From Prorocentrum cordatum (lineage: Eukaryota): a stretch of DNA of 64,000 nucleotides. Below are positions 27,356 through 46,698 of the stretch, in pieces (within the stretch, counting starts at the first letter, position 1; the number at the start of each line of letters is the position of its first letter). A program made the translations under genes and the position numbers. Below the pieces are notes generated by a model, which worked only from the letters and a program-made list of their open reading frames with translations, made no database searches and was not told the origin of the DNA. The stretch spans positions 1-64,000 of the forward strand of contig CAUYUJ010000272.1 in the NCBI GenBank assembly GCA_963575745.1, written 5' to 3'.

Positions 27356-27455
27356 NNNNNNNNNNNNNNNNNNNNNNNNNNNNNNNNNNNNNNNNNNNNN
27401 NNNNNNNNNNNNNNNNNNNNNNNNNNNNNNNNNNNNNNNNNNNNNNNNNNNNNNN
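27356..27455. other. Assembly gap (100 N)
   Basis: Run of n. Confidence 1.
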
Positions 27456-27607: not shown

Positions 27608-28515
27608 ACCACCACCACCACCACCACCACCACCACCACCACCACCACCACCATCACAACCACCACCACCACCACCAGCACCAGCACCACCACCAGCACG
27701 AGCACGAGCACCAGCACCAGCACCAGCACCAGCACCACCACCACGAGCACCACCACCACCACCACCACCACAACCACGCACACACGCACGCACGCACGCA
27801 CGCACGCACGTGCACCACCACCCACTACGCACGCGCGCGCTGAGCCACAGGTCCGCTACGACACGCGTCCGCGGATAGAGAAAATCAGCGCCATGGTAAG
27901 GGATGGGAGGGAGGGGTAGGACATCAGATACGACGCGAGCGCACCTAGCTTGCCTCCTCCCCCTCCCCCTCAACCTCCTCCTTCTCCTCCTCCTCCTCCT
28001 CCCTCCTCCTGCCTCCTCCTGCTCCTTCCTCCTCCTTCCCTCTACTCTTCCTCCTTCCCTCCTCCCTTCCTCCCTCCTCACACCTCCCCTCCTCCCTCCT
28101 CCCTCCATCTCCACTCCTCCTTTCCCTCCTCCTCCCTCCTCACTCCTCCCTCCGCCGGCCCTCCTCCTCCCCTCCTCCTCCCTCCTCCTCCTAACTCCTC
28201 CTCCTCCTCCTTCCTCCTCCTCTCTCTCCTCCTTCCTTCCTCCTCCTCTCCTCTCCTCTCATCCGCCTCCTCCTCCTCCTCCGTCTCCTCCCTCCCCCTA
28301 CCCTCAAACTCCTCCTCCTCCTCCTCCTCCTCCTCCTCCTCCTCCTTCTACTCCGTCTCATCCCTCCACTCCCCCTCAACCTCCTCCTCCTCCTCCTCAT
28401 CCTTCTCCCGTTCCCTTATCAGCTCCTCCTCAAGTCCTCCTCCTCCCAATCCTCCTCCTCCTCCCTCATCCTCTCCTCCTCCTCCTCCTCCTCCTCCTCC
28501 TCCTCCTCCTCCTCC
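27608..28515. repeat. (CAC)n then (CTC)n microsatellites next to the assembly gap
   Basis: Directly visible. Confidence 0.95.
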
Positions 28516-29865
28516 TCGGGTCGCCTACGGCCCCAGGGGAAACCGTGCAGCAGCGCCCCGACCTCGGGTCGGGCGCGTGGTAATCCGACCAGGGGCGAAG
28601 CGCCCTGGCTTGCCTATAAGCCCACCAAATAATGTCGCTAACACTTGTTTGGTCTGCCCGACATGTTCTTATAACACTTCTGGCTGATACAGTCTTGCTA
28701 ATGATATAAGAGCCTGGTTTTTGTTTTACGAACCATCTCTTGGTCTAAGATCATGTCGGGGTAGGCCTATGCAATGCCGGAACGGTCGGTCTCTGTTCAA
28801 ATAATGGGGGGTGACCTAAACTGGGGGTACAGAAAATGACCTGAAAGGGGTGTTTTCTTCCCTAAGGTGTCTTCTTCTTGACCCCCCATGTAGGTCACTC
28901 CACATTACCACCCGCCCGATCAGGGGAGGAGGGAGGGTGGGGAGAAATGGTCAGGTCGGTCGGCTTCCCTGTCCCCCTAGGCCTCCCAGGTGGGGTCCGA
29001 GAGGATGGGGAGAGACGATCGCGCCGCATCATTGGTGCATCGCCAGTGCGGCTCGATGTGGAGCCAGAGTTTCTCCACTTCTCCACGCCTACGGCGCCGA
29101 TGCATCGCCGACGTCGCCGATGCATCGGCGATGTATCGGCAATGCATGGGCGATGCGGCGCAAGCCTCCGACCCCATCCACTCGTACCCCATCTGCTACC
29201 CTCGACCAAATTCACCTCAAACATATGTTGCGCAGTTTCCTTGTCGATGTGATTTTCTGGCTTTGGGTAACATTACGTGCCAAGTACTTGTTGGCGCCCA
29301 CCCTGCAATGTCAGCCATCGTGGAACTTCCGAGTCACACCCGCTCAGGTCGCGTTTCGCCCCCGCGTCGACATCGATTTGGGGCGACATTGAATGGGTGA
29401 ATGGGGGCGACATTGACGGGGGGCGTCAACCATTTTTGAGGTCAACTTAGTCGAGGGATGCAGGAGGTCCCCCAGAGGTTCTGACGGTCCCGGGGCCAGG
29501 AAGCGGCCCCCGGAAGCCGAAAAAGGCAAAAATCTTTCCCGAATCCAGTGCCTCTCACCTCGGACCCCATCTATCTCTACCCACCAAACCACCCCAACCA
29601 TGCCCGAAGGCCCCACTGGGCCCTCCATTCCCAGTGGTGGGGGGGGGCGTCCGGGAACATTGAAAACCGCGTATGGCACCCGTACCCCCTCCCCCCAACC
29701 CGAGATTTGGGTCTTCGGGTTGCGTTGGGGTGGTCTGGGAGGTACAGTCGAGCATCTGATTAAGCAGCCTCCTCCCAAAAAGCTAGGCTAGCGTTTCTTC
29801 GCCAACTTGCCCAGTTTCTTGCGCACCGCACCCTCTCTAGCGCCAACAGGGACGGCTGGCCCAGC

Positions 29866-31750: not shown

Positions 31751-31782
<32 letters not shown>

Positions 31783-31881
31783 GAACCTTCCAAGGAAACC
31801 TATGCGGAGTCCACCTGAGCGTGCGCGACGCCGTTGATGGATAACGGTTGAGTTTCATCCATCTGCCGTAGCTGTGTTGGC
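31783..31881 (+). repeat. Split direct repeat A1 (99 bp, 5' terminus of the element)
   Basis: GAACCTTCCAAGGAAACC...GCTGTGTTGGC reads identical to 39033-39131 (offset 7250). Confidence 0.95.
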
Positions 31882-32121
31882 TCGAGACAGGCAGCGGAGT
31901 CACCGGGCGGTGCCGCCCGTCTGTGGCCGCTGCCGAGCCACTCTGTCTACTGAAAGTTCGCCGCGCCGAGCGCGGCCGCGTGCAGGCCACGCTCGGACGA
32001 CTGATTCTGATCAGCCTCGCTGGCAGACTTTGCGGGCTGAGGGGAGCGAAGACCTGGCTGGGAGACGAGGATCCCGGGCGCGGGTCGCCCCTCTCCCGCG
32101 CCGCTGCTGGCGAGGAGCCCG

Positions 32122-33564
32122 ATGGAGCGGGCAGCCCCGGGTGCCGCCGGGTGGCCCTTCCCGAGAGGGGCCTGGCTCGACGCGGCGCTGAACGGCGACC
32201 TGGTGCCGGGGCTGCCGCTGTGGGCTGGTGCACGGGTCCTGGCGCGCGTCAAGGACGACGACGGGGCGCCGCAGGGCGTCGAGATGCTCGAAGTGGAGGT
32301 CGCCTACCAAGCGGACGCCTTCGGCCGTTTCTTCAAGGGGCGGCACGTGGGCGCCAGCGACCCGTACTTCTCATGGTATGCAGCCTCCTCCGGGCAGCAG
32401 GGCGCGCGCCCCCTGGCCACGGTCTTCCACCTCTGCAAGTGCAGCGCCGCCGAGTGCGGGGCGGTCGCCCCAGTGGGCGCAGTAGTCGAGCACTTGGACG
32501 TGTGGCAGGTGGTGGACCCCCGCGATGTGGCCCGCGAGCAGGCGAAGCTCATCTGCCCGGCCGCGGACCCTGGAGCGCCTGTGCTGGCCGACGCGCCCTC
32601 GGCCGAGCCGATGCCTGGAGAGCTCGGCGGATGGCCGCTCGGGGACGGGGCCAACGAGGACGAGGAGGAGCCTCGCGGGCCACCGCGCAAGCGAGCCCGC
32701 GAGGTGGAGGGCACCCAGACCCCTGGCGGACCAGGAGATACGAGCCCGCTCGACCAGGAGCTTGCTGGGCTCGAGGAGACCGCCGAGGACCCCGAGCTCG
32801 AGGCGCGGCTGGCGCGGCTCGGGGGCAAGGCAGCTCGTGGTGGGCCGAGGCAGGGCACGCCCAAGAATGCCGCGCGCCCAGCAGGGGCCGTGGGCGAGCG
32901 CCTGGCGCAGGTGGTAGCTGGCCGAGCCGCCGCTGCTGCCCCTGCGCGCGCCAGCGCCTCGGGATCGAAGAGCAGGCTGGCGTCAGCGTTGACCGCTGCG
33001 CTCCTGGGGCGCGACGACGACGACGCGGAGGACGGCGCGGAGAGCGACACGGAGCGCCTCGGGGGCCGCGATCGCTACCAGGGCGTGAACATCAAGCGCG
33101 ACTTGTTCCGCAGGATCGCTCGGCAGCGGCCTGGTGCTCTCCTCGAGAATGGGCTCGGCCACCTGCGCAGCCAGTTCACCCAGCAGCTGTCCGCGGGCGA
33201 AGCCGACCCTCTGGCCCCATGCGTCACGCAGTTCCTGAACACGGTGTTCTTCGTTGCTCACCCGCCGCGCACGCTGGGGACAGACGAGGTGCGGGTCCTC
33301 CGCACGCTGGGGCTGGCGCTCGACGGCATCCTGCGCGGAGAGGTCGTCGAGACTGCGGATCTGCTCATGCAGGAGTTCAAGGCGCGGACGATGGCCATCC
33401 GCGACGGGAACTGGCGGTCAGCACGGTGGCTCACGCTGGTCGCACAGGAACAGCTTCCATCAGGCGCCTCTCTGGACGAGGAGAACGCCGCCGAGAAGGT
33501 CGAGGCCCGGGAGCTGAAGGTCGCCGAACTCCGCCAGCGGCTTGCAGACCGCAGGCCGGGCTAG
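32122..33564 (+). CDS. ORF1, putative Gag-like protein of the YR retrotransposon (480 aa)
   Basis: ATG-initiated, non-repetitive and GC3-rich, in the first-ORF position of the element. It has an N-terminal H-x-C-x6-C-x11-H cluster, an acidic/Pro linker and a helical-looking C-terminal block ([30 protein letters not shown]). The Gag call is positional. Confidence 0.8.
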
Positions 33565-34041
33565 GGGTCTGGCCGGGAGCCGTCTCCGTTGCAGGGGGGG
33601 ACGGCACCTGCAGGCCATGGGCGCGCGGAGGCGCGCCCCCCGCCCCCTGCTACCGGGACGCCAGTCTCGGGATCGGCCGAGGCGATGAGGATCCTTGCCG
33701 GACGCGTTCCTGGCGACGGTCCCGCAGCTCCCCCCGCCGAGAAGAAGCCGCCAGCGGCGCGGAGGACCAGCCGCAGTCCCACGCGGTCAGTCCAGCTCCT
33801 GAGCGACTCGGAGGGGGACCTCGACGCAGCAGCCGCCGCCCGCGTGCCACCAGCGGAGGCGGCGGCGAGCCGGAGCTTCTCGCAGCACAAGGCGGCCCAC
33901 CCGAGGCGCGAGGGCGAGACCCAGGCAGCGTGGAAGGCGCGCATCGGGAGGCCGCTGGCTGCCAAGAGCCGCGGCAAAGGCAAGACGGGGAAGAGCCGCG
34001 GCACGGGCACTGCTCGCAGGACGGCCTGGGTTCGAGCGTGA
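33565..34041 (+). CDS. In-frame continuation of ORF1 beyond its TAG (158 codons, Pro/Ala-rich then basic KSRGKGKTGK tail); possible read-through extension
   Basis: Same frame as ORF1, with no stop between TAG 33562-33564 and TGA 34039-34041. It ends just before the likely pol start. Confidence 0.45.
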   Translation, partial: GSGREPSPLQGGTAPAGHGRAEARPPPPATGTPVSGSAEAMRILAGRVPGDGPAAPPAEKKPPAARRTSRSPTRSVQLLSDSEGDLDAAAAARVPPAEAAASRSFSQHKAAHPRREGETQAAWKARIGRPLAAKSRGKGKTGKSRGTGTARRTAWVRA

Positions 34042-34145
34042 GGGCCGACACGGCTAAGGCCGCGGCCCACAGCACGCCCCCGCCTGCCCTCCGCCCGCCT
34101 GAGCGGCAGCTTCGCGGCAGTTCGCAGGCTCGGCGGTGGCGCCAG

Positions 34146-37100
34146 ATGCTAGCCGAGGTGGGCACGGGCGTCAGCTCCAAGTTCAGGCTGGCCCTCGCAG
34201 TCCACGAGGCGGTGCACGGCTCGCCAGGGGCGATCGGGCGGTACGTTCGTAAGATGTGCACTTCGCCAGACCCCACGGCCAGCTTCGCGCGGCTGCGCGA
34301 GGTGTTGCCGTTACCACTGCCCGACGCCCCACTCTTCGAGAGGTACCGCGCCGCCTGGTACCTGCACCAGCAGCTGCCGGAGACCTGCGAGGTGGACGCC
34401 GCCACGGCGCAGGGGTGGGCCCAGCTCGTGGTCTTCAGCCTGAACTACCAGTACACGGGGCACATGCGCAGTCCCACCGTCGCCGCGAGGCGGCCCACGG
34501 CTAGCCAGGTTAGTGCGCTCGGCATTGTGCAGGAGGCCTGTGAGTATTTCGTTCAGGATGCCGCCACAGCCTTCGAGCTCCCGGACTGGGACCGGGTCAT
34601 CTCGTCGAGGACCGTCTCCTACGGGGGCGAGGAGACGGCCCGCGCCTTGCCGCTCTCGCTCGCGGGCATCATGCCAGGCCTCCCCGCGCGCGGCGTTGCC
34701 GCCTCGGTCAAGGCGGTCGACATCGCGGACGCTCAGGTGGGCGCCTGGCTTGCCGACCCCACGCTGGCTTTGCTCCCACGAGATGAGTGGCCTGCAGAGG
34801 TCCCGCGGGCAGCGATCCAGGTCACGTCCAAGCAGGAGTGGTACCGCATCGGGACCAAGCTCGTCGAGCTGGGGCTGGCGGCGCCGATCGCCGACGACCG
34901 CATCTTCAAGGTCGGGAACCGCAAGGTGCTTGCGGGGGCGTTCGGGGTCGCCAAGGGAGGCACGCCGTCACCTGGGCAGGCGTGCGTCCAGCGGTTAATC
35001 ATCAACATGGTCCCGGCCAACAGCTACCAGCGCATCATGAGGGATGACATCGGGACCCTTAGCGCGTCGCCCTCGTGGGTCGCCATCCCGCTCCCAGAGG
35101 GCCACATGCTGCTCTGGTCCTCGGATGACCAAGCCTCCGCTTTCTACTGCTACGAGCTGCCCGAGGCCTGGCAGCCATACATGACCCTCGCGGAGGCGAT
35201 CCCGAACGAGCTCATCGGTGTGCCGGGTCCTGGGAAGACTCACCTCGCGCTGCGCGTCATCCCGATGGGCTGGATCAACGCGGTCACGGTGTTTCAGCAC
35301 TGCCACAGGCGCCTCGGGTTCGGCTCTCGCCCCCTCGCTGCGGGGTTTCCCGCAGAGCTCGAGTGGCGCAAGGACCGGCCGCTTCCGTTCAAGTCGAAGG
35401 AGCTCGAGCAGCAGTGGATCCAGTACTACATCGACGACTGGGACCATGGCGAGGTGGTGCCCAACGCGATGGTCGCGGAGCTCCTCGGCACGATGAGCTG
35501 CGCGCAGGAGGAGCAGAGGGCCGCCTACGGCCGCTCGGGGATCAGCGTCGCCCCCGGCAAGGCCAAGCACCGCGCGCTGGTCCTGGAGCGGATGGGCGCG
35601 GGTCTTGACGGGGCCGTCGGCCGGGTCGGAGTCACGACCGAGAAGCTGCACCAGCTGCTGGCGTTCATCCTGTGGGGCATGGGCAGGCAGGGCCTCTCGT
35701 CACAGGGCATGCTCATGATCCTAGGCAGGTGCGCCAGGGCAGCGGAGTTCAGGAGGCCTTTCATGGGATTCCTCAACAGCGTGTGGGCTGCTGGACGCTG
35801 GACGCGTCCGCAGACTGGTCCCCTTGGCATGTGCGACGAGCTCTTGGGCTTCGCGATGGCGCTGCCGCTGGCCTACACTGACCTGCGCGCGAAGATCGAC
35901 ACTTGTGTCATAGCGACCGATGCCAGCGAGCGCGCCGGGGGCATCTGCCACACGGCCGGGCTCTCGGCGCAGGGCGTTGCGTGCGCGAGAGGGGGGGCTT
36001 CGGCTGTGACGTTGCGGCCTGGTGCAGTTGCGGCCCCTGTGCGGGGTGTGCGGTGGCGTCCTCGCATAGTTCTCATCGAGCTCTTCGCTGGCGCCGCGGG
36101 GGCCGCGGTGGCGGCCTCCAGACTCCCGATCGACGTGATGGCCCATGTCAGCTGCGAGGTCGAGCCCGCCGCCCGGCGACTGGTGCGTCGCCGCTGGGCG
36201 GGCGTGATCGAGCTTGGCAACATCGAGGCCGTCGACACGGCGCGGTTTACTGAGATGCTGAAGGGCTACGCGCGGGACGCCGACTGGGTCGTCCTGACCG
36301 CGGGGAGCCCGTGCCAAGACCTGGCGAGCATCAATGTCGTGGGGACCGGCCTGGAGGGGTCGAGGTCGAGGCTCTTCTTCCGGGTCCCCGAGCTGATCCA
36401 GGCAGCAGAGGCTGCCTTTCCCAAGCGCACCATGTGGTTCGTCGAGAACGTGTTCAGCATGACCTTAGAGTCGAGGGCGGAGTTCACCAGGGCGCTTGGC
36501 GTCACACCCGTGTTCCTCGATGCCAGGTGTCTCACTCACGTCAGGCGGCCCCGCCTGTACTGGTGCTCGTGGCCCGTTACGGCGTTCTTGGCGTCCGACG
36601 CCACCGTCGAGACCAAGGGTGTGGGTGAAGCCACGTACTTCAAGGTCTCGCTTGCGGTGGAGAGGCTCCCACTGAGTGCCTCGCTCCTGGAGGGCTGGTC
36701 GACGCTGGACCCTGAGGCAGACCTCCCTTGTTTCACGAGGCCGATCCCGCGGAGTCACCCGCCGTTTCGGCCCGTGGGCCTCGACCGCGCCTCGGTGAGG
36801 GCTGCAGAGCGCTGGGCTGCCGACAGCTACCGTTACCAGGTCAACAACTACGAGGACGGCAGCCTCATCTGGGATGCAAGGCGTGAGCGGGGCCGGCTGC
36901 CCGTGCCTGAGGAGCGTGCTGCCCTGATGGGGTTCGACCGTCTCTATTTCCAGGCCGCTGTAAAAGATAGTGCACCTGCCGCCGAGCGTGACAGCGTCAT
37001 TGAGTCTCTGATCGGGAATACGTTCTGCGTCCAGGCTGTCATGTATCTTCTCGGCTCGTGGCTCGCTCAGGTGGGGGCGCTAGCGGCCGCCATCCCGGGC

Positions 37101-37826
37101 AGCAGCTGCCTCGCTGTGGGCACGTGCGAGGCGAACTGGAACGTGGTCCCCGACTTCCAGCAGCCGGGACATCGCGACCCGCGGTTGGAACGCAGCCTGA
37201 TCGTGGAGTTCCTGAGGGTCGCGGACCGCGGGGGCACGGACGTCCGGCTTGACACCGGGGCACCCTACCGAGCCCGCGCGTGGCCGCGGGCAGCTCTCCG
37301 TACGCACCTCTGGGCCTGGCGGATCGCCAAAGGGTTTCGCTGGCAGCGGCCCGGGCACATCTCGGCGCTGGAGCTGGAGGCTGCAGTGGCTGGAGCGCGC
37401 TGGAGGTGCCGAGCGGTTGAGAACCACCGCTGCCGCTACCTGCACATACTGGATGCCCAAGCGATCGCGGCAGTCAGCACCAAGGGCAGATCGAGCGCGA
37501 GGGCTTTGCAGCCCGCGCTCCGCCGTCTCAACGCCCTCCTCCTCGCGACGGCAGGGTACCCGCTGTACGGCTACTGCGACACCGACGACATGCCCGCCGA
37601 CACGCCGTCCCGCTGGAGCTTCGGCCGCCGCTGCCTCGCTCCCAGTGCGGCCGCCGGCAAGGGCCAGGAGGGCCGCCCCCAGCAAGCGTGCAGCACAAGC
37701 AGCGGCAAAGGTGAGCCGGGTCACAGCTCAGGCGATGGCGCGACGAGCTGCAGCGAGATCCCAACCGCTGAGGGAGGCGATGGTCACGCCACTCACCCTG
37801 CAGCGGTACCGTGCGGCAGTCGATGA
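34146..37826 (+). CDS. Pol: reverse transcriptase + RNase H interrupted by a DNMT3-like C5-cytosine methyltransferase (~1226 aa from ATG 34146; frame open from 31923)
   Basis: RT motifs: AFGVAK, RLIINM, SDDQASAFY, IPMGW and YIDD (35427-35438). RNase H motifs: TDAS (35916-35927), HISALELE (37356-), ILDAQ (~37452) and PADTPSR (37593-37613). MTase motifs: I ELFAG (36078-36092), IV GSPCQ (36303-36317), VI ENV (36444-36452), VIII RRPRLYW (36543-36563), IX RLPVPEERAALMGF and X IGNTF (37011-37025). The start codon is uncertain. Confidence 0.93.
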   Translation: MLAEVGTGVSSKFRLALAVHEAVHGSPGAIGRYVRKMCTSPDPTASFARLREVLPLPLPDAPLFERYRAAWYLHQQLPETCEVDAATAQGWAQLVVFSLNYQYTGHMRSPTVAARRPTASQVSALGIVQEACEYFVQDAATAFELPDWDRVISSRTVSYGGEETARALPLSLAGIMPGLPARGVAASVKAVDIADAQVGAWLADPTLALLPRDEWPAEVPRAAIQVTSKQEWYRIGTKLVELGLAAPIADDRIFKVGNRKVLAGAFGVAKGGTPSPGQACVQRLIINMVPANSYQRIMRDDIGTLSASPSWVAIPLPEGHMLLWSSDDQASAFYCYELPEAWQPYMTLAEAIPNELIGVPGPGKTHLALRVIPMGWINAVTVFQHCHRRLGFGSRPLAAGFPAELEWRKDRPLPFKSKELEQQWIQYYIDDWDHGEVVPNAMVAELLGTMSCAQEEQRAAYGRSGISVAPGKAKHRALVLERMGAGLDGAVGRVGVTTEKLHQLLAFILWGMGRQGLSSQGMLMILGRCARAAEFRRPFMGFLNSVWAAGRWTRPQTGPLGMCDELLGFAMALPLAYTDLRAKIDTCVIATDASERAGGICHTAGLSAQGVACARGGASAVTLRPGAVAAPVRGVRWRPRIVLIELFAGAAGAAVAASRLPIDVMAHVSCEVEPAARRLVRRRWAGVIELGNIEAVDTARFTEMLKGYARDADWVVLTAGSPCQDLASINVVGTGLEGSRSRLFFRVPELIQAAEAAFPKRTMWFVENVFSMTLESRAEFTRALGVTPVFLDARCLTHVRRPRLYWCSWPVTAFLASDATVETKGVGEATYFKVSLAVERLPLSASLLEGWSTLDPEADLPCFTRPIPRSHPPFRPVGLDRASVRAAERWAADSYRYQVNNYEDGSLIWDARRERGRLPVPEERAALMGFDRLYFQAAVKDSAPAAERDSVIESLIGNTFCVQAVMYLLGSWLAQVGALAAAIPGSSCLAVGTCEANWNVVPDFQQPGHRDPRLERSLIVEFLRVADRGGTDVRLDTGAPYRARAWPRAALRTHLWAWRIAKGFRWQRPGHISALELEAAVAGARWRCRAVENHRCRYLHILDAQAIAAVSTKGRSSARALQPALRRLNALLLATAGYPLYGYCDTDDMPADTPSRWSFGRRCLAPSAAAGKGQEGRPQQACSTSSGKGEPGHSSGDGATSCSEIPTAEGGDGHATHPAAVPCGSR

Positions 37827-38649
37827 AGTCGTTGATTTCTGGATCCAGGAGCACCGGCAGCCGCAGACGCCCGCTCAGGTCGACGCTGGCGTGGCCGCCT
37901 TCATTGAGAGCCGCTGGCTGAGCGGAGGATCTTTGTTCGAAGTTAATAATGCTATTGCTGGCATCACGCACGCTTTCCCGCCCGTGCGAGGGCACCTGCG
38001 GGACAGCTGGCGCTTGGCCAAGACGTGGCAACGACTGGAGCCAGCTGGGCGGGCGCTGCCGATTGGTCCGCTGATCGCGGCAGCATTCGCTGGTGCATTT
38101 GCAGCCGTAGGCCAGCTCGGTGCTGCGGCGGTGCTGGCTGCGGGCTACGATGCTTTCCTCCGGACGGGTGAGATGACCTCGCTCGTGTGGTCCGATGTAC
38201 AGCTGTACCCACTCCGACGAATGGCCGTGCTGCAGCTGCGCAACGCCAAGAGCCAGCATCAGACTGGTGCCCGAGAGTTCGTGCTCGTGCGGAGTGGTGT
38301 AGCGGTCGCCCTCCTTGCTAGAGCAAAGGCTCAGGCGCACGGACAGGACTTGTGCCTCGGAATGGAGCCAAACAGTTTCATGAACACTTTCAGCCGAGTG
38401 CGTGAGCTGCTGGAACTGCAGGATGCTAAGCTCACCCTCTACAGCTGGCGGAGGGGCGGCGCCTCCGCCGACTTCCGCAGCCATGGCTCCATGGAGCAGA
38501 CGCTGCTCCGAGGCAGATGGGCCTCGGCGCGCACGGCCCGCTTGTATGTCCAGGATGCCGTCGCCGAGGCCACTCAATTAAATCTCTCGCCCGCGCAGCG
38601 GAAGCGCTGCGGCCTGCTCGCGTCCCGCCTGCGAGCAGAAGCGAGATGA
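37453..38649 (+). CDS. Tyrosine recombinase (integrase) of the retrotransposon, overlapping the pol 3' end in another frame
   Basis: Catalytic motifs: FLRTGE (R at 38161), NAKS (K), YSWRRGG (38440-, HxxR position), RGRW (38509-38520) and ARLYV (Y at 38545). The first in-frame ATG is 37453, with alternatives at 37735 and 37780; the frame is open from about 37249. Confidence 0.92.
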   Translation: MPKRSRQSAPRADRARGLCSPRSAVSTPSSSRRQGTRCTATATPTTCPPTRRPAGASAAAASLPVRPPARARRAAPSKRAAQAAAKVSRVTAQAMARRAAARSQPLREAMVTPLTLQRYRAAVDEVVDFWIQEHRQPQTPAQVDAGVAAFIESRWLSGGSLFEVNNAIAGITHAFPPVRGHLRDSWRLAKTWQRLEPAGRALPIGPLIAAAFAGAFAAVGQLGAAAVLAAGYDAFLRTGEMTSLVWSDVQLYPLRRMAVLQLRNAKSQHQTGAREFVLVRSGVAVALLARAKAQAHGQDLCLGMEPNSFMNTFSRVRELLELQDAKLTLYSWRRGGASADFRSHGSMEQTLLRGRWASARTARLYVQDAVAEATQLNLSPAQRKRCGLLASRLRAEAR

Positions 38650-38782
38650 ACTTTTCTTGCTTTGTACTGCCTGTCTGTCTGTCCCGCCCATCCTCCACCT
38701 TTCTTCCCTCATTTCATTACAACGAGGTGGAGGGCATAAGTAAGAGCAAGAGGGAGCGGCTTTTGCCAGAGTAGGGACCGTG

Positions 38783-39026
38783 GAGAGAGCTAGGGGGTTC
38801 AGGGGTTGGTGACGTTTAACCTCCCGGCGGTGCAAGTGTGTCAGCGCGTCTGGGACGCAGCGCGGGTGCTTAAGCGCCACGGCTGTGCCAGGCGGGTTGG
38901 GAGGCCCTTGGATGCCGCTGAAGGGACGGGACCTCTCCCAACTCCTGGAATGACCCCTGAGTAGCCCCCAGAGGTCCTGGCCTGACAAGCTCCCTGGCGG
39001 AGTGCACAAAAACAGGTGAGAGAAGC
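38783..39026 (+). repeat. Split direct repeat B1 (244 bp)
   Basis: GAGAGAGCTAGGGGG...GGTGAGAGAAGC reads identical to 39210-39453 (offset 427). Minus-strand ORF-track translations over both copies are also identical. Confidence 0.95.
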
Positions 39027-39032
39027 ATATAT

Positions 39033-39131
39033 GAACCTTCCAAGGAAACCTATGCGGAGTCCACCTGAGCGTGCGCGACGCCGTTGATGGATAACGGTTG
39101 AGTTTCATCCATCTGCCGTAGCTGTGTTGGC
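39033..39131 (+). repeat. Split direct repeat A2
   Basis: Identical to A1 and joined to B1 through ATATAT (39027-39032). Confidence 0.95.
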
Positions 39132-39209
39132 CCACCCACAGACAGGGGGCAGCATTGCTACCGTCTCGCGCGTGGCCGTGCCTGCCTCCGCGCGAGTATT
39201 TGCCAGGAC

Positions 39210-39453
39210 GAGAGAGCTAGGGGGTTCAGGGGTTGGTGACGTTTAACCTCCCGGCGGTGCAAGTGTGTCAGCGCGTCTGGGACGCAGCGCGGGTGCTTAA
39301 GCGCCACGGCTGTGCCAGGCGGGTTGGGAGGCCCTTGGATGCCGCTGAAGGGACGGGACCTCTCCCAACTCCTGGAATGACCCCTGAGTAGCCCCCAGAG
39401 GTCCTGGCCTGACAAGCTCCCTGGCGGAGTGCACAAAAACAGGTGAGAGAAGC
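39210..39453 (+). repeat. Split direct repeat B2 (3' terminus of the element)
   Basis: Identical to B1 and followed directly by (AT)12 at 39454-39477. Confidence 0.95.
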
Positions 39454-39491
<38 letters not shown>

Positions 39492-44130: not shown

Positions 44131-45544
44131 GCTCCTTATGTCTCCTTCCTGGAGATCTTTGGAGGAAAAGCGGCGGCCGGGCCGCGTGGAATTACTGCTG
44201 TCGAAAGGCCTTGTCTTGGAGCTCTTTTGGGCTGTGTTGGGGGGCTTGGGCCGTCTTGGGACTCTCTTGGGGCTCTCCTCGGCCCTCTTAGGGGCCTTCT
44301 CTGGCCGTCTCGGGGCTCTCTTGGGGGCTTTTTCGGACTCTCCGGGGCCCCTCTTCGGTGGTCTCGAGCTATCTTGGGCTGTCTTGGGGCCCTCTTTAGG
44401 GCGTCTTGGACCGTCTCGAGGCGACCATGGAGGTTTCTTGGATCGTCTTGGATGCTGCTGATTAAGACCGAAGAAGCGAGTATGCTAGAAATGTACGTCC
44501 TAAGGGAATGGCACGACTTTCGCCTCTTCGGGGCGCTCTTGGGAGGTGTCTTGGAGCGTCTTGAGGGCCTCGTTGGCCGTCTTGAGGATGTTAGGGGCCC
44601 TCTCTGAACGCACTTGGGCCGTCTTGGGGCCGTTCTGGGGCCGTCCTGGGCTCAGCCCGGGCGTTCTGGAGCGGTCCTGGGCCGTTCTGGTGCTCCGCGG
44701 GGCCGTTCAGTAGCCGAACCAGGGCCCGCTCTGGTGGTGCAGGCTGGTCGGGAGAGCGAGGCACGAATAATTTATGTACGGGGGAGGTGTCCACACAAGA
44801 ATAAGGTCGGACCGAGGTCTAAGGTCGAGGTCGGTTCGGGGAGGGTGCCCCACCCAGTTCTCCTCGTGTGTGTTGGATGCTCCTGTGCATCCTGGGGAGG
44901 GTACCCTTGGCTGTTCTGTGCGTGTTGGCTGGCGGAGGGTCTCATGTCATGTTCGTGAAGGATGCGCTTCTGTCCTAGGTCCGGCTGTCTCGGGGGCCTC
45001 CTGGAGGAGTGGAGTGGTCTCCTGGAGGAGTGGAGTGATTGCGCGTGCTCTGCCGCCCCCTGCGGTCTCGGAGGCCTCCTGGAGGAGTGGAGTGGTTGCG
45101 CGTGCTCTGCCCGCCCCTGAGTGCGGGGGAAGGTACACATTTTTCTTCTGGTCCCCGGGGATCCGGGGCAGCCTTCTCCCCCAAGCCTTGCCTCGCTCCC
45201 TCCCTTCCTCCGTCCTCAGCTTTCATCAGTTCCCCCCTCTCCCATGCTTCCACTGATGCGGAAGAGGAGGAGGAGGAGGAGGAGGAGGAGGAGGAGGAGG
45301 AGGAGGAGGAGGAGGAGCCGGCGGAGGAGCGGCGGAGGAGGAGGAGGAGGAGGGAGGAGGAGGAGGAGGAGGAGTATAATATAATGGAGGAGGAGGAGGA
45401 GAGGAGGAGGAGGAGGAGGAGGAGGAGGAGGAGGACACGGAGGAAGAGGAGACGGAGGAAGAGGAGGACGAGGAGGAGCGAGGAGGCGGAGGAGGAGGAG
45501 GATAATATATTGGCGGAGGAGGAAGAGGAGCAGGAGCAGGAGCA

Positions 45545-45584
<40 letters not shown>

Positions 45585-46540
45585 AGGAGGAGGAGGAGAG
45601 GAGGAGGAGGAGGAGGAGGAGGACGAGGGAGGAGCGAGGAGCAAGGAGGAGGAGGAGGCGGAGGAGGAGGAGGAGGAGACGGAGGAAGAGGAGGAGGAGG
45701 GAGGAGGAGGAGGAGGAGGAGGAGGGAGGAGGAGGAGGAGACGGAGGAAGAGGAGGAGGAGGAGGAGGAGGAGGAGGAGGAGGAGGGGGAGGGGGAGGGG
45801 GAGTAGGGGTTGGAGGAACCAGGACGCGATGGATGCGTGCGTTTCGCCCCCTTTGGCGTAGTTTGAACGACGTTGCTCCGAGAGGACACCGCTGGCTAGC
45901 CCTCCGTGTCAGGGCGCGCTTGCTGTGCAAGATGCGCCGACGGAGCGCGCTGAACCCTCAGTGACTCAGAAGAGGAACACGTATCCATGCCGCTACGTTT
46001 CGCTCGTTTTCCCCTTTTTGAGCCTCGTGGGAGGCCCTCGTCGCGACGGCTGGAGTCGCATCCCAGGAGAGGTCCGGGGAGTAGCGCTATCGGTACCGCC
46101 GATTGGAGGCATTGGTGACAGCGCTGCATTGCTACTTCGGCGGCAGTGCATGCCCTGCGATTTCGGATCGGCTGCCGCTGTGGAAGAGGAGGGGCGGGAG
46201 GCCGTACGTGGGCGACGCAGAAGCACGGGGCCGTCCGCGCCGACTCTGGCGCGTGAGCTGCCCGCGTCAGGTCGCGCGTAAGCGCCCTCGCGCTGGCGGC
46301 CCGCGTACACCGCCGCGCAAGGTCGCCTCGCCATCTAGCGCAGGACGCCTCTTTGTCCAGACCCCCGACGTCGACCCCCAGAGGTCTGGACTCCTTCCCC
46401 AGGACCGGTTTTTCATCCCGAGTCGTTTTCTGACGGCCCCGAGGCCCGGGAAGGGCCCCCAGCCCAGGGGCCGAAAATGGCGAAAAGCCGCCCGTCGTGT
46501 TTTTGTCGCAGCTCTAGGGGGTCTGGGTGAATCGTTCACC

Positions 46541-46698
46541 ACCCACCAAACCACCCCAACCTAACCCGAAGGCCTCAATGTGCCCTCCCTTTCCAGTGGG
46601 GTGGGTGGGGTCGGGAAACATCGACAAAACACATATCCCGTCGTCCCCCCCCCACCCGAAATGCGGGTTTTCGGGTTGGGTTGGGGTGGTCTGGTAGG
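46541..46698. mobile_element. MITE family M5 (CCAAACCACCCCAACC..CCCGAA inverted termini)
   Basis: The right end TTCGGGTTGGGTTGGGGTGGTCTGG mirrors the left end; copies lie at ~29578-29742 and ~59926-60082. Confidence 0.7.

Follow-up and report, generated by a model that had tools for sequence, protein, structure and literature searches.

In this study, we analysed a 64,000-nucleotide stretch of Prorocentrum cordatum DNA (contig CAUYUJ010000272.1; here called the window) and conclude, with a probability of roughly 85%, that the element at about 31777-39459 is a young, intact DIRS-like tyrosine recombinase retrotransposon in which a DNMT3-like methyltransferase is nested within the RNase H of Pol, whose two halves are predicted to reassemble. 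Elements of this kind are already known as SymbioDIRS-Dnmt3 (de Mendoza 2018).

All features of the element lie on the forward strand. It carries split direct repeats in the order A1-coding-B1-A2-B2: the 105-nt repeat A1 (31777-31881) is 100% identical to its pair, A2 (39027-39131), and the 250-nt repeat B1 (38783-39032) is 100% identical to B2 (39210-39459), with 78 nt separating A2 from B2. ORF1 (32122-33564; 480 codons from the first ATG) is called gag-like, a function assumed from position only, and it matched no Pfam family at E values of up to 10. The pol ORF (34146-37826), whose 1,226-codon reading frame is uninterrupted, encodes a reverse transcriptase (RT), the N part of the RNase H, the DNMT, and the C part of the RNase H; it has 16 homologues at an E value of 1e-5 or better, 12 of which are named Prorocentrum cordatum, and the best is 97% identical. 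The RT, including the thumb, occupies 34821-35894, with the motif YIDD at 35427-35438, and was aligned by BLASTP (HSP1; E = 8e-17) with P0236, a relative without a DNMT. Pfam did not detect an RT in the window's own pol protein; the relatives P0231 and P0244 score for RVT_1, which supports the RT identity by homology. A tyrosine recombinase ORF (37216-38649) overlaps the end of pol in another frame, and its conserved part begins near 37795. The region from 37750 to 38646 aligned with residues 702 to 957 of P0244 (BLASTP; E = 3e-20), a segment overlapped by a Pfam Phage_integrase match in that protein (residues 807 to 958; E = 1.1e-9); the window recombinase itself gave no direct Pfam or PDB sequence match. 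Across the three ORFs, Pfam matched neither a protease nor a DDE integrase, and the latter result, together with the RT-RNase H Pol, the separate tyrosine recombinase, and the split direct repeats, identifies the element as DIRS-like.

An earlier note on this DNA had proposed that an RNase H loop following the first strands had received an entire enzyme as a graft, and the structural model, the alignment breaks, and the fold of a DNMT-less relative all support that proposal. Read in the frame of 31923-37826, the motifs on which it was based lie where it had placed them: TDAS at 35916-35927, HISALELE 480 codons later at 37356-37379, and PADTPSR at 37593-37613, with the C5-methyltransferase motifs between TDAS and the downstream RNase H motifs. 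ILDAQ spans 37446-37460, and the position previously given for it, 37452, is the start of its Asp codon (37452-37454). The premise that TDAS and HINxLE are normally only a few tens of residues apart is true of the DNMT-less relatives that were found: among 76 such proteins with all three motifs, from 108 examined, the spacing is 41 to 104 residues in 75 (median, 61) and 215 residues in one.

An AlphaFold2 (AF2) model of 35820-37640, built on a 99-row alignment (A3), had a mean pLDDT of 89.5 and a pTM of 0.88. In this model, the RNase H N segment (35895-35990; E31-35, E39-48, and H50-57; pLDDT of 96 to 97) is made up of strand 1 (35910-35924), strand 2 (35934-35963), and a short helix (35967-35990), and the Asp codon of the catalytic position within TDAS (35919-35921) falls on strand 1. 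A poorly conserved, variable linker (35991-36044; pLDDT of 51 to 82, with residues 61 to 64 under 50) leads into the insert. After the DNMT there is a return helix (37179-37217; model H454-466), which the DNMT-less P0069/P0081 group has as well, and then the RNase H C segment (37311-37634), delimited by the AF2 secondary structure and by a second BLASTP segment to P0236 (HSP2; E = 1e-6). The C segment consists of strand 3 (37311-37340), helix A (with a Glu at 37371-37373), strand 4 (with the ILDAQ Asp), two helices, and strand 5 (37557-37574), modelled as E498-507, H514-529, E538-544, H547-555, H561-577, and E580-585; its last Asp is at 37599-37601.

The model was searched with VIA-align against 48,161 chains; the spans quoted run from the first to the last aligned residue. 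The best RNase H match, 3u3g_D (Z = 12.7; rmsd, 2.8), aligned 130 of its 140 residues with model residues 26 to 605, drawing on both halves, and 4e19_A (Z = 12.5; 124 of 133 residues aligned) and 3aly_B (Z = 12.2) also bridged the two halves. Human RNase H1 (8swc_A) and HIV-1 RT (6uir_A) matched with Z scores of 10.9 and 9.9, respectively; the structural RNase H matches begin at model residue 26 and end at residues 603 to 607. The C segment comprises about 108 residues; therefore, at least some 20 of the 130 aligned residues must be contributed by the N segment. The predicted model has the five-stranded sheet of a type-1 RNase H, with matches over most of the domain, and D34, E518, D545, and D594 lie on strand 1, helix A, strand 4, and the C-terminal helix, with their catalytic roles assigned by position. 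As the earlier note had anticipated of a structure prediction, the halves form one RNase H, with strands 1 and 2 before the insert and the remainder after it, and the modelling thus predicts that the two segments come together as a single, ordinary type-1 fold bearing all of the DEDD residues.

The DNMT is inserted into the strand 2-strand 3 hairpin, which is already a length-variable loop in DNMT-less relatives. In the BLASTP comparison of pol with P0236, HSP1 stops at TDASERAGGI and HSP2 opens at strand 3, leaving 457 residues of pol between the two, compared with 42 of P0236. An hhalign alignment of A3 with A6 (probability, 100; E = 1.2e-39) stops at the same break point. When the insertion point was compared across the family, the DNMT-bearing proteins were found to share this site: strands 2 and 3 are 449 residues apart here and 420 to 445 residues apart in five other DNMT-bearing proteins, as against 65 to 70 in four proteins of the P0069/P0081 group and 30 to 38 in three outgroup proteins, all of which lack the DNMT. 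The DNMT-less P0069 provides a natural control; its AF2 model (pLDDT of 86.4) has the identical order of elements, and its top matches are those of the pol model, with 3u3g_D (Z = 13.2; 130 of 140 residues aligned; model 103 to 299) again aligned from the TDAS strand onwards.

The same division was seen in a census of 339 proteins scored with N-piece, C-piece, and DNMT HMMs, 124 of which matched both pieces. A DNMT match lies between the pieces in 52 of these (gap, 311 to 542; median, 432), and 67 have no DNMT match and a gap under 150, the median gap of all 72 proteins without a DNMT match being 35. The other five have larger gaps and no clear DNMT. Some relatives carry unrecognised inserts at the RNase H insertion site. 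The DNMT-less RT-RNase H(-YR) elements (P0230-P0343 and the P0069/P0081 group) have a homologous RT, TDAS strand pair, strand 3-to-end RNase H, and recombinase; however, their RNase H is contiguous and no DNMT HMM match is present. The tree is compatible with the DNMT-less condition of the P0081 group being either the ancestral state or a secondary loss.

The RNase H might instead lie wholly downstream of the DNMT, with a conserved G-T-D-V-R-L-D motif providing the first-Asp strand and the TDAS pair being a vestige of an old RNase H or part of the RT connection; we regard this as quite unlikely. The motif opens a G-T-D-V-R-L-D...A-W-P-R loop (37236-37286), and its D474 is an Asp in 95 of 97 rows and is positioned 44 residues ahead of the helix-A Glu, the canonical RNase H spacing. 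This is also the model's least confident stretch (pLDDT under 50 for residues 473 to 489 and 37 to 42 around D474), and the model is therefore unreliable exactly where a strand would be sought. Nevertheless, residues 473 to 489 are predicted to be unstructured and the C part has only three strands; a first-Asp strand of its own in the downstream part, which the earlier note would have taken as evidence against a split domain, is thus represented by an Asp motif in a low-confidence loop. Furthermore, the full-length structural alignments need the N part, and the TDAS Asp is invariant, which would be unexpected of a vestige: it is an Asp in all 39 covering rows among 41 aligned family members and in 34 of 34 rows of A3, in which the N segment is covered by only 34 of the 99 rows. 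Outgroup relatives shown in full retain TDAS, yet divergent or low-complexity sequence replaces their DVRLD, and in P0069, where the RNase H match opens at the TDAS strand, the DVRLD stretch is again modelled as a loop. The D474 stretch may have a structured role.

Alternatively, the split RNase H may fold but be catalytically dead or structural, acting as a scaffold for the RT and the DNMT while a host RNase H removes the RNA. An insert of 450 residues could disturb folding, and searches with HMMs and against PDB sequences yielded no RNase H; however, the fold match is on a par with that of the contiguous relative P0069, and the DEDD residues are nearly invariant, which makes this explanation very unlikely. 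Besides the TDAS Asp, the helix-A Glu, the strand-4 Asp, and the last Asp are conserved in 98/98, 97/98, and 96/99 rows of A3, respectively, and in 41/41, 41/41, and 39/40 of the family members mentioned above. Judged from this sequence conservation, the RNase H motifs exceed chance occurrence. It is extremely improbable that the arrangement is an artefact, whether a chimeric assembly or a dead copy into which a DNMT gene landed by chance, for although the window has many repeats and an N run, and deleted variant copies are known (joint 36912 to 37331), the pol frame is intact, the terminal repeats are identical, the order N piece-DNMT-C piece recurs in the 52 proteins, which come from several sources (among them a 'Skav' gene model and records named Prorocentrum cordatum and Amphidinium carterae), and contigs from independent runs bridge the junctions at 35951-36074 (X1 and X3), 36855-37351/37394 (X1 and X3), and 36924-37351 (X5).

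The insert in the split RNase H is a DNMT3-like C5 cytosine methyltransferase (36045-37085), in which what we take to be motifs I (IELFAGAAG, starting at 36075), IV (PCQ, 36306), VI (ENV, 36444), VIII (RPRLYW, 36546), and X (GNTFCV, 37014) are intact. It matched Pfam PF00145 (DNA_methylase; E = 1e-08; 35.4 bits; cut-off, 22). Foldseek matched the insert with DNMT3A (6f57_D; E = 3.3e-17; TMt, 0.83), and VIA-align matched it with DNMT3B (6u8p_A; Z = 28.5; 275 of 291 residues aligned; model 76 to 416) and with 4u7t_C (Z = 27.5), compared with Z scores of 23.5 or below for bacterial methyltransferases. As modelled, the fold of the insert is nearest to the DNMT3A and DNMT3B catalytic domains, and it accounts for about 345 of the approximately 450 residues that separate RNase H strands 2 and 3. 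According to the text of the SymbioDIRS-Dnmt3 study, isolated DNMT domains from two distant copies carried out de novo CG methylation in yeast (PMC5890265).

The earlier note also held that the insertion would cause domain scanners to miss the RNase H. Pfam does miss it; neither half matched any family at E values of up to 10, with RNase_H, RVT_3, and RT_RNaseH all failing to score, and RNase H was not recovered by a PDB profile search. An Atlas lead was a cluster with RT_RNaseH in 10% of its members (score, 0.92). However, Pfam also misses the RNase H of contiguous, DNMT-less relatives (0/3 at E values of up to 10 and 0/11 at E values of up to 0.01); therefore, the main cause of the miss is sequence divergence and not the split.

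Among known systems, the one that comes closest in how such an arrangement works is the RuvC domain of Cas9 and Cas12, an RNase H-like fold that is interrupted by whole inserted domains yet reassembles to form a single active site. The parallel is one of resemblance only: the proteins are unrelated, and both the insertion points and the inserted domains are different. We are aware of no other retroelement RNase H that houses an entire enzyme. Goodwin and Poulter reportedly described, in 2004, DIRS1-group elements with a Dam-like N6-adenine methyltransferase. These are likewise tyrosine recombinase retrotransposons whose Pol has an RT, an RNase H, and a DNA methyltransferase; however, the adenine enzyme is unrelated, and the text of Muszewska 2013 (PMC3783388) lists it as a domain of its own, the order being RT, RH, MT, and does not describe it as lying inside the RNase H. 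The SymbioDIRS-Dnmt3 elements, as presented in the text of PMC5890265, are alike in being DIRS-like with A-coding-B-A-B repeats, in having a divergent RT that Pfam misses, and in encoding a DNMT3-type enzyme in a Pol ORF with RT and RNase H alongside a separate tyrosine recombinase ORF; they differ in their host, which is Symbiodinium rather than Prorocentrum. The same text presents KnitGypsy-Dnmt3 from Klebsormidium as an independent capture of a DNMT3-type enzyme into a retrotransposon Pol, in that case of the Gypsy type. The text of that study and three of its four supplementary files give the domain order of the Symbiodinium elements and do not describe a DNMT interrupting the RNase H fold (PMC5890265). 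The order TDAS, DNMT, HIN seen in the window pol also occurs in a Skav218343-labelled protein (P0204). The nested topology is found across the element family, and we found no description of it in print.

In E. coli RNase HI, the hairpin between strands 2 and 3 is at the sheet end distal to the active site; thus, both enzymes could work while fused. To our knowledge, DIRS elements encode no protease, and consequently the RT, the RNase H, and the DNMT would remain in one polypeptide. The new DNA copy might then be CpG methylated in cis by the fused DNMT, as was suggested for the elements of Symbiodinium by de Mendoza et al. in the text of PMC5890265. Methylation may, as the earlier note proposed, be coupled to degradation of the RNA:DNA hybrid. 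A more speculative view, which we consider doubtful, is that the nested DNMT and RNase H constitute one functional machine rather than a pair of neighbours that tolerate each other. When one enzyme bound the nascent duplex or the RNA:DNA hybrid, this would then position or gate the other, with the G-x-D-V-R-L-D...A-W-P-R loop at the return junction possibly serving as a hinge or a nucleic acid clamp. The minus-strand cDNA would be CpG methylated while the RNA template was being removed, and the fresh copy would gain a host-like methylation mark ahead of integration.

In conclusion, these results correct the domain layout assigned to an abundant, already known family of dinoflagellate retrotransposons: its RNase H is predicted to be split by a domain-in-domain insertion, rather than the RT, the DNMT, and the RNase H following one another in a row. 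They partly explain the incomplete Pol architectures that sequence-profile annotation yields in such genomes, and they provide leads in the conserved G-T-D-V-R-L-D loop and in the relatives with unrecognised inserts at the insertion site. If no protease separates them, the RNase H and DNMT activities would be inseparable, and the proposal that the cDNA is methylated in cis could thereby be tested directly.

The RNase H domain of pol is predicted to be interrupted by an intact DNMT3-like methyltransferase (DNMT), as the earlier note had claimed. Three independent lines support this nested arrangement: the predicted structure, homology to relatives that lack the DNMT, and a natural control, the DNMT-less relative P0069. 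The evidence for the topology of the fold, the site of insertion, the conservation of the DEDD residues, and the integrity of the methyltransferase domain comes from prediction or homology. The motifs lie where they had been placed, with TDAS at 35916-35927, HISALELE at 37356, the Asp of ILDAQ at 37452, and PADTPSR at 37593-37613; TDAS and HISALELE are 480 codons apart, and the C5-methyltransferase motifs run from 36075 to 37031 between the two RNase H halves. The four putative catalytic acids (the TDAS Asp, the helix-A Glu in HISALELE, the strand 4 Asp in ILDAQ, and the last Asp in PADTPSR) are conserved in 34/34, 98/98, 97/98, and 96/99 rows, respectively, of a 99-row family alignment and in 39/39, 41/41, 41/41, and 39/40 members of a 41-protein set. 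The layout of the RNase H and methyltransferase motifs is therefore confirmed, and a chance motif match is ruled out.

An AlphaFold2 model of 35820-37640, built from the 99-row alignment, had a mean pLDDT of 89.5 and a pTM of 0.88. Before the insert, the model contains a thumb helix, a strand (residues 31 to 35, with TDAS at 33 to 36), a second strand (39 to 48), and a short helix. The methyltransferase (approximately residues 76 to 422) comes next, reached through a weak linker, and is followed by a helix (454 to 466) and an unstructured stretch (473 to 489; pLDDT below 50). The C-terminal part of the RNase H comprises a strand (498 to 507), the helix that carries HISALELE (514 to 529), a strand (538 to 544) that is followed by Asp 545, two helices, another strand (580 to 585), and a final helix, which carries Asp 594. 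Based on this order of secondary structure elements, two strands would precede the insert and three would follow it.

When the model was aligned with 48,161 solved chains, DNMT3B ranked first (Z 28.5; model residues 76 to 416) and was followed by RNases H, whose alignments ran from model residue 26 to residues 603 to 607. These matches included LC11-RNase H1 (3u3g_D; Z 12.7, rmsd 2.8, 130 of 140 residues aligned), Halobacterium RNase H1 (4e19_A; Z 12.5, 124 of 133 aligned), Sulfolobus RNase HI (3aly_B; Z 12.2), human RNase H1 (8swc_A; Z 10.9), and the RNase H domains of foamy-virus and HIV-1 reverse transcriptases (RT) (Z about 10). The structural aligner reports only the first and last aligned residues. 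With its roughly 108 residues, the C segment alone is too short to account for 130 aligned ones. A BFVD fold search returned viral C5-methyltransferases only.

DNMT-less relatives served as a natural control for deletion of the insert, in place of an artificially joined sequence. The model of P0069 (pLDDT 86.4) has the same order of elements as the split RNase H and matches the same RNases H at equivalent scores from the TDAS strand on (3u3g_D; Z 13.2, 130 of 140 residues aligned, model residues 103 to 299); in a Foldseek search, it matched retroviral RT-RNase H chains at E values of 6.9e-5 or weaker, with poor TM scores. Comparison of pol with P0236, another DNMT-less relative, by BLASTP gave two pieces: the first (E 8e-17) extends through the RT and stops at TDASERAGGI, and the second (E 1e-6) begins at strand 3. 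Between them lie 457 residues in pol versus 42 in P0236, and a profile-profile comparison (probability 100, E 1.2e-39) breaks off at the same point. In a joint alignment, strands 2 and 3 are separated by 449 residues in pol and 420 to 445 in five other DNMT-bearing proteins, versus 65 to 70 in four proteins of the DNMT-less P0069/P0081 group and 30 to 38 in three outgroup proteins.

The only Pfam match in pol was DNA_methylase (PF00145; 35.4 bits versus a cutoff of 22), and at E values up to 10 no Pfam family was found for the N half, the C half, the RT part, the gag-like open reading frame (ORF), or the tyrosine recombinase (YR) ORF. A search of the PDB with the family profile gave no RNase H and only weak matches to the DNMT C terminus, and a PDB sequence search with the YR ORF gave nothing meaningful. 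Likewise, an RNase H profile matched none of three natural contiguous relatives at E values up to 10 and none of 11 relatives at E values up to 0.01. The absence of an RNase H match to the joined halves, which the earlier note had held to count against the insertion, formally obtains at the sequence level; however, it is uninformative, because contiguous relatives that fail in the same way have a clear RNase H fold. The expectation that scanners would miss the RNase H was borne out for both halves, but its attribution to the split was not, since the contiguous relatives were missed too; divergence is the main reason.

An alternative is that the downstream part has a first-Asp strand of its own, supplied by the G-T-D-V-R-L-D motif, a reading that we regard as very improbable. 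The return junction of the insert (37236-37286) does carry a nearly invariant G-[TS]-D-V-R-L-D-x-G-x-P-F-R-x-x-A-W-P-R sequence, in which Asp 474 is conserved in 95 of 97 rows and sits 44 residues N-terminal to the helix Glu. A conserved Asp motif therefore exists downstream, but it is predicted as a loop rather than a strand, where model confidence is lower than anywhere else in the protein (pLDDT 37 to 42), and it is again a loop in the P0069 model (pLDDT 56 to 71). Furthermore, the TDAS Asp is invariant, and outgroup relatives compared in full keep TDAS, whereas the motif is replaced by divergent or low-complexity sequence. The whole G-T-D-V-R-L-D...A-W-P-R motif is also present in the DNMT-less P0069/P0081 group.

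An assembly artifact was rejected on the basis of the intact frame, the identical repeats, and the bridging of both insert junctions by contigs from separate public sequencing runs (N side, 35951-36074 in X1 and X3; C side, 36855-37351 or 36855-37394 in X1 and X3 and 36924-37351 in X5). Contigs of all four sequencing runs compared join 36912 to 37331 via 34 other letters; they represent DNA copies from the family that lack the DNMT C terminus along with the return helix and conserved loop.

The split RNase H lies in a long open frame of 1967 codons (31923-37826, forward strand), of which pol was taken as 34146-37826 (1226 codons) because homologues start near the ATG at 34146. The frame is open for approximately 2.3 kb 5' of this likely start (31872-34145), where the GC content is about 0.73 and the translation is rich in Arg, Gly, and Ala; this stretch is probably noncoding read-through, so ORF callers may produce an inflated protein of 1967 residues. 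On the same strand but in other frames, the gag-like ORF (32122-33564) overlaps the upstream third of the long frame, and the YR ORF (37216-38649) overlaps the end of pol. Two pairs of 100% identical repeats, A (31777-31881 and 39027-39131) and B (38783-39032 and 39210-39459), surround the coding part in the order A1, coding, B1, A2, B2, which matches the arrangement in the legend to Fig. 1e of de Mendoza et al. 2018 (PMC5890265) for SymbioDIRS-Dnmt3. B1 overlaps A2 by 6 nt, and 78 nt of unique sequence (39132-39209) separates A2 from B2, a small departure from strict B1-A2-B2 abutment. Among the closest proteins of pol, 12 of 16 matches are named Prorocentrum cordatum (best identity, 97%), and tblastn against the 64-kb window found no second copy of pol, gag, or YR. 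Outside the element, long imperfect trinucleotide arrays with strong GC skew (TGA, GGA, GAG, GAT, GGT, and others; up to 288 copies) take up a large part of the window, at 102-3880, 20453-21017, 25154-25338, 27953-28517, 45260-47539, and 56276-57140. There is also a tandem array of an 83-nt unit (19856-20335; 5.8 copies, 82% matches) and an assembly gap of 100 N (27356-27455), and no Rfam family reached its gathering score anywhere in the window.

With the C segment as query, 2158 representative proteins matched at an E value of 0.001 or better. Among 339 retrieved proteins, 124 matched both the N-piece and C-piece HMMs: in 52, a DNMT HMM match lay between these two (gap 311 to 542, median 432), 67 had no DNMT and a gap below 150, and 5 had a gap of 188 to 390 without a clear DNMT, one of which (P0151) revealed a degenerate DNMT remnant once filters were off. 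DNMT-bearing members come from records labeled Prorocentrum cordatum and Amphidinium carterae and from a "Skav" gene model; the nested layout is therefore family-wide and extends to the published Symbiodinium kind. In P0187, P0207, P0228, and P0301 (and P0235), 188 to 390 residues separate the TDAS strand pair from strand 3, with no Pfam family and DNMT HMM E values above 0.05; these inserts may be very degenerate DNMTs or different inserts, and in the latter case the strand 2-3 loop would be a recurrent insertion site. The DNMT-less outgroup family gave 109 matches, some of them fusions with a Pfam Phage_integrase domain. In 75 of 76 of its proteins, TDAS and HIN lie 41 to 104 residues apart, so the strand 2-3 connection was already a loop of variable length. 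In a quick LG+G4 tree of 41 rows with the insert columns removed, the DNMT-less P0081 clade is part of a polytomy at the base, and long-branch warnings apply to the tree.

This kind of element is already published; for its interruption of the RNase H fold by a DNMT, we found no description. No such statement occurs in the main-text passages and supplementary files searched of PMC5890265, although the topology could already be drawn in its figures or its one remaining supplementary file, which lay outside the search. SymbioDIRS is named in one other paper, which likewise lacks such a statement. The searched portions of PMC9998398 and of a 2026 preprint (10.64898/2026.05.21.726589) do not mention it. 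Literature searches found no paper on DIRS retrotransposons in Prorocentrum and, among the matches listed, nothing relevant to nested domain insertion in a retrotransposon RNase H.

Taken on their own, the DNMT domains from two distant SymbioDIRS-Dnmt3 copies carried out de novo CG methylation in yeast, as reported in PMC5890265. By analogy, the insert would be an independently folding, active unit. Presumably, from the geometry of Escherichia coli RNase HI, the strand 2-3 hairpin lies far from the active site, so that both enzymes could work with the DNMT at this position. We know of no protease in DIRS elements, and without one RT, RNase H, and DNMT would stay in a single chain. It can be envisioned that the cDNA would then be methylated in cis by the chain-linked DNMT, as de Mendoza et al. 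have proposed for SymbioDIRS-Dnmt3 (PMC5890265).
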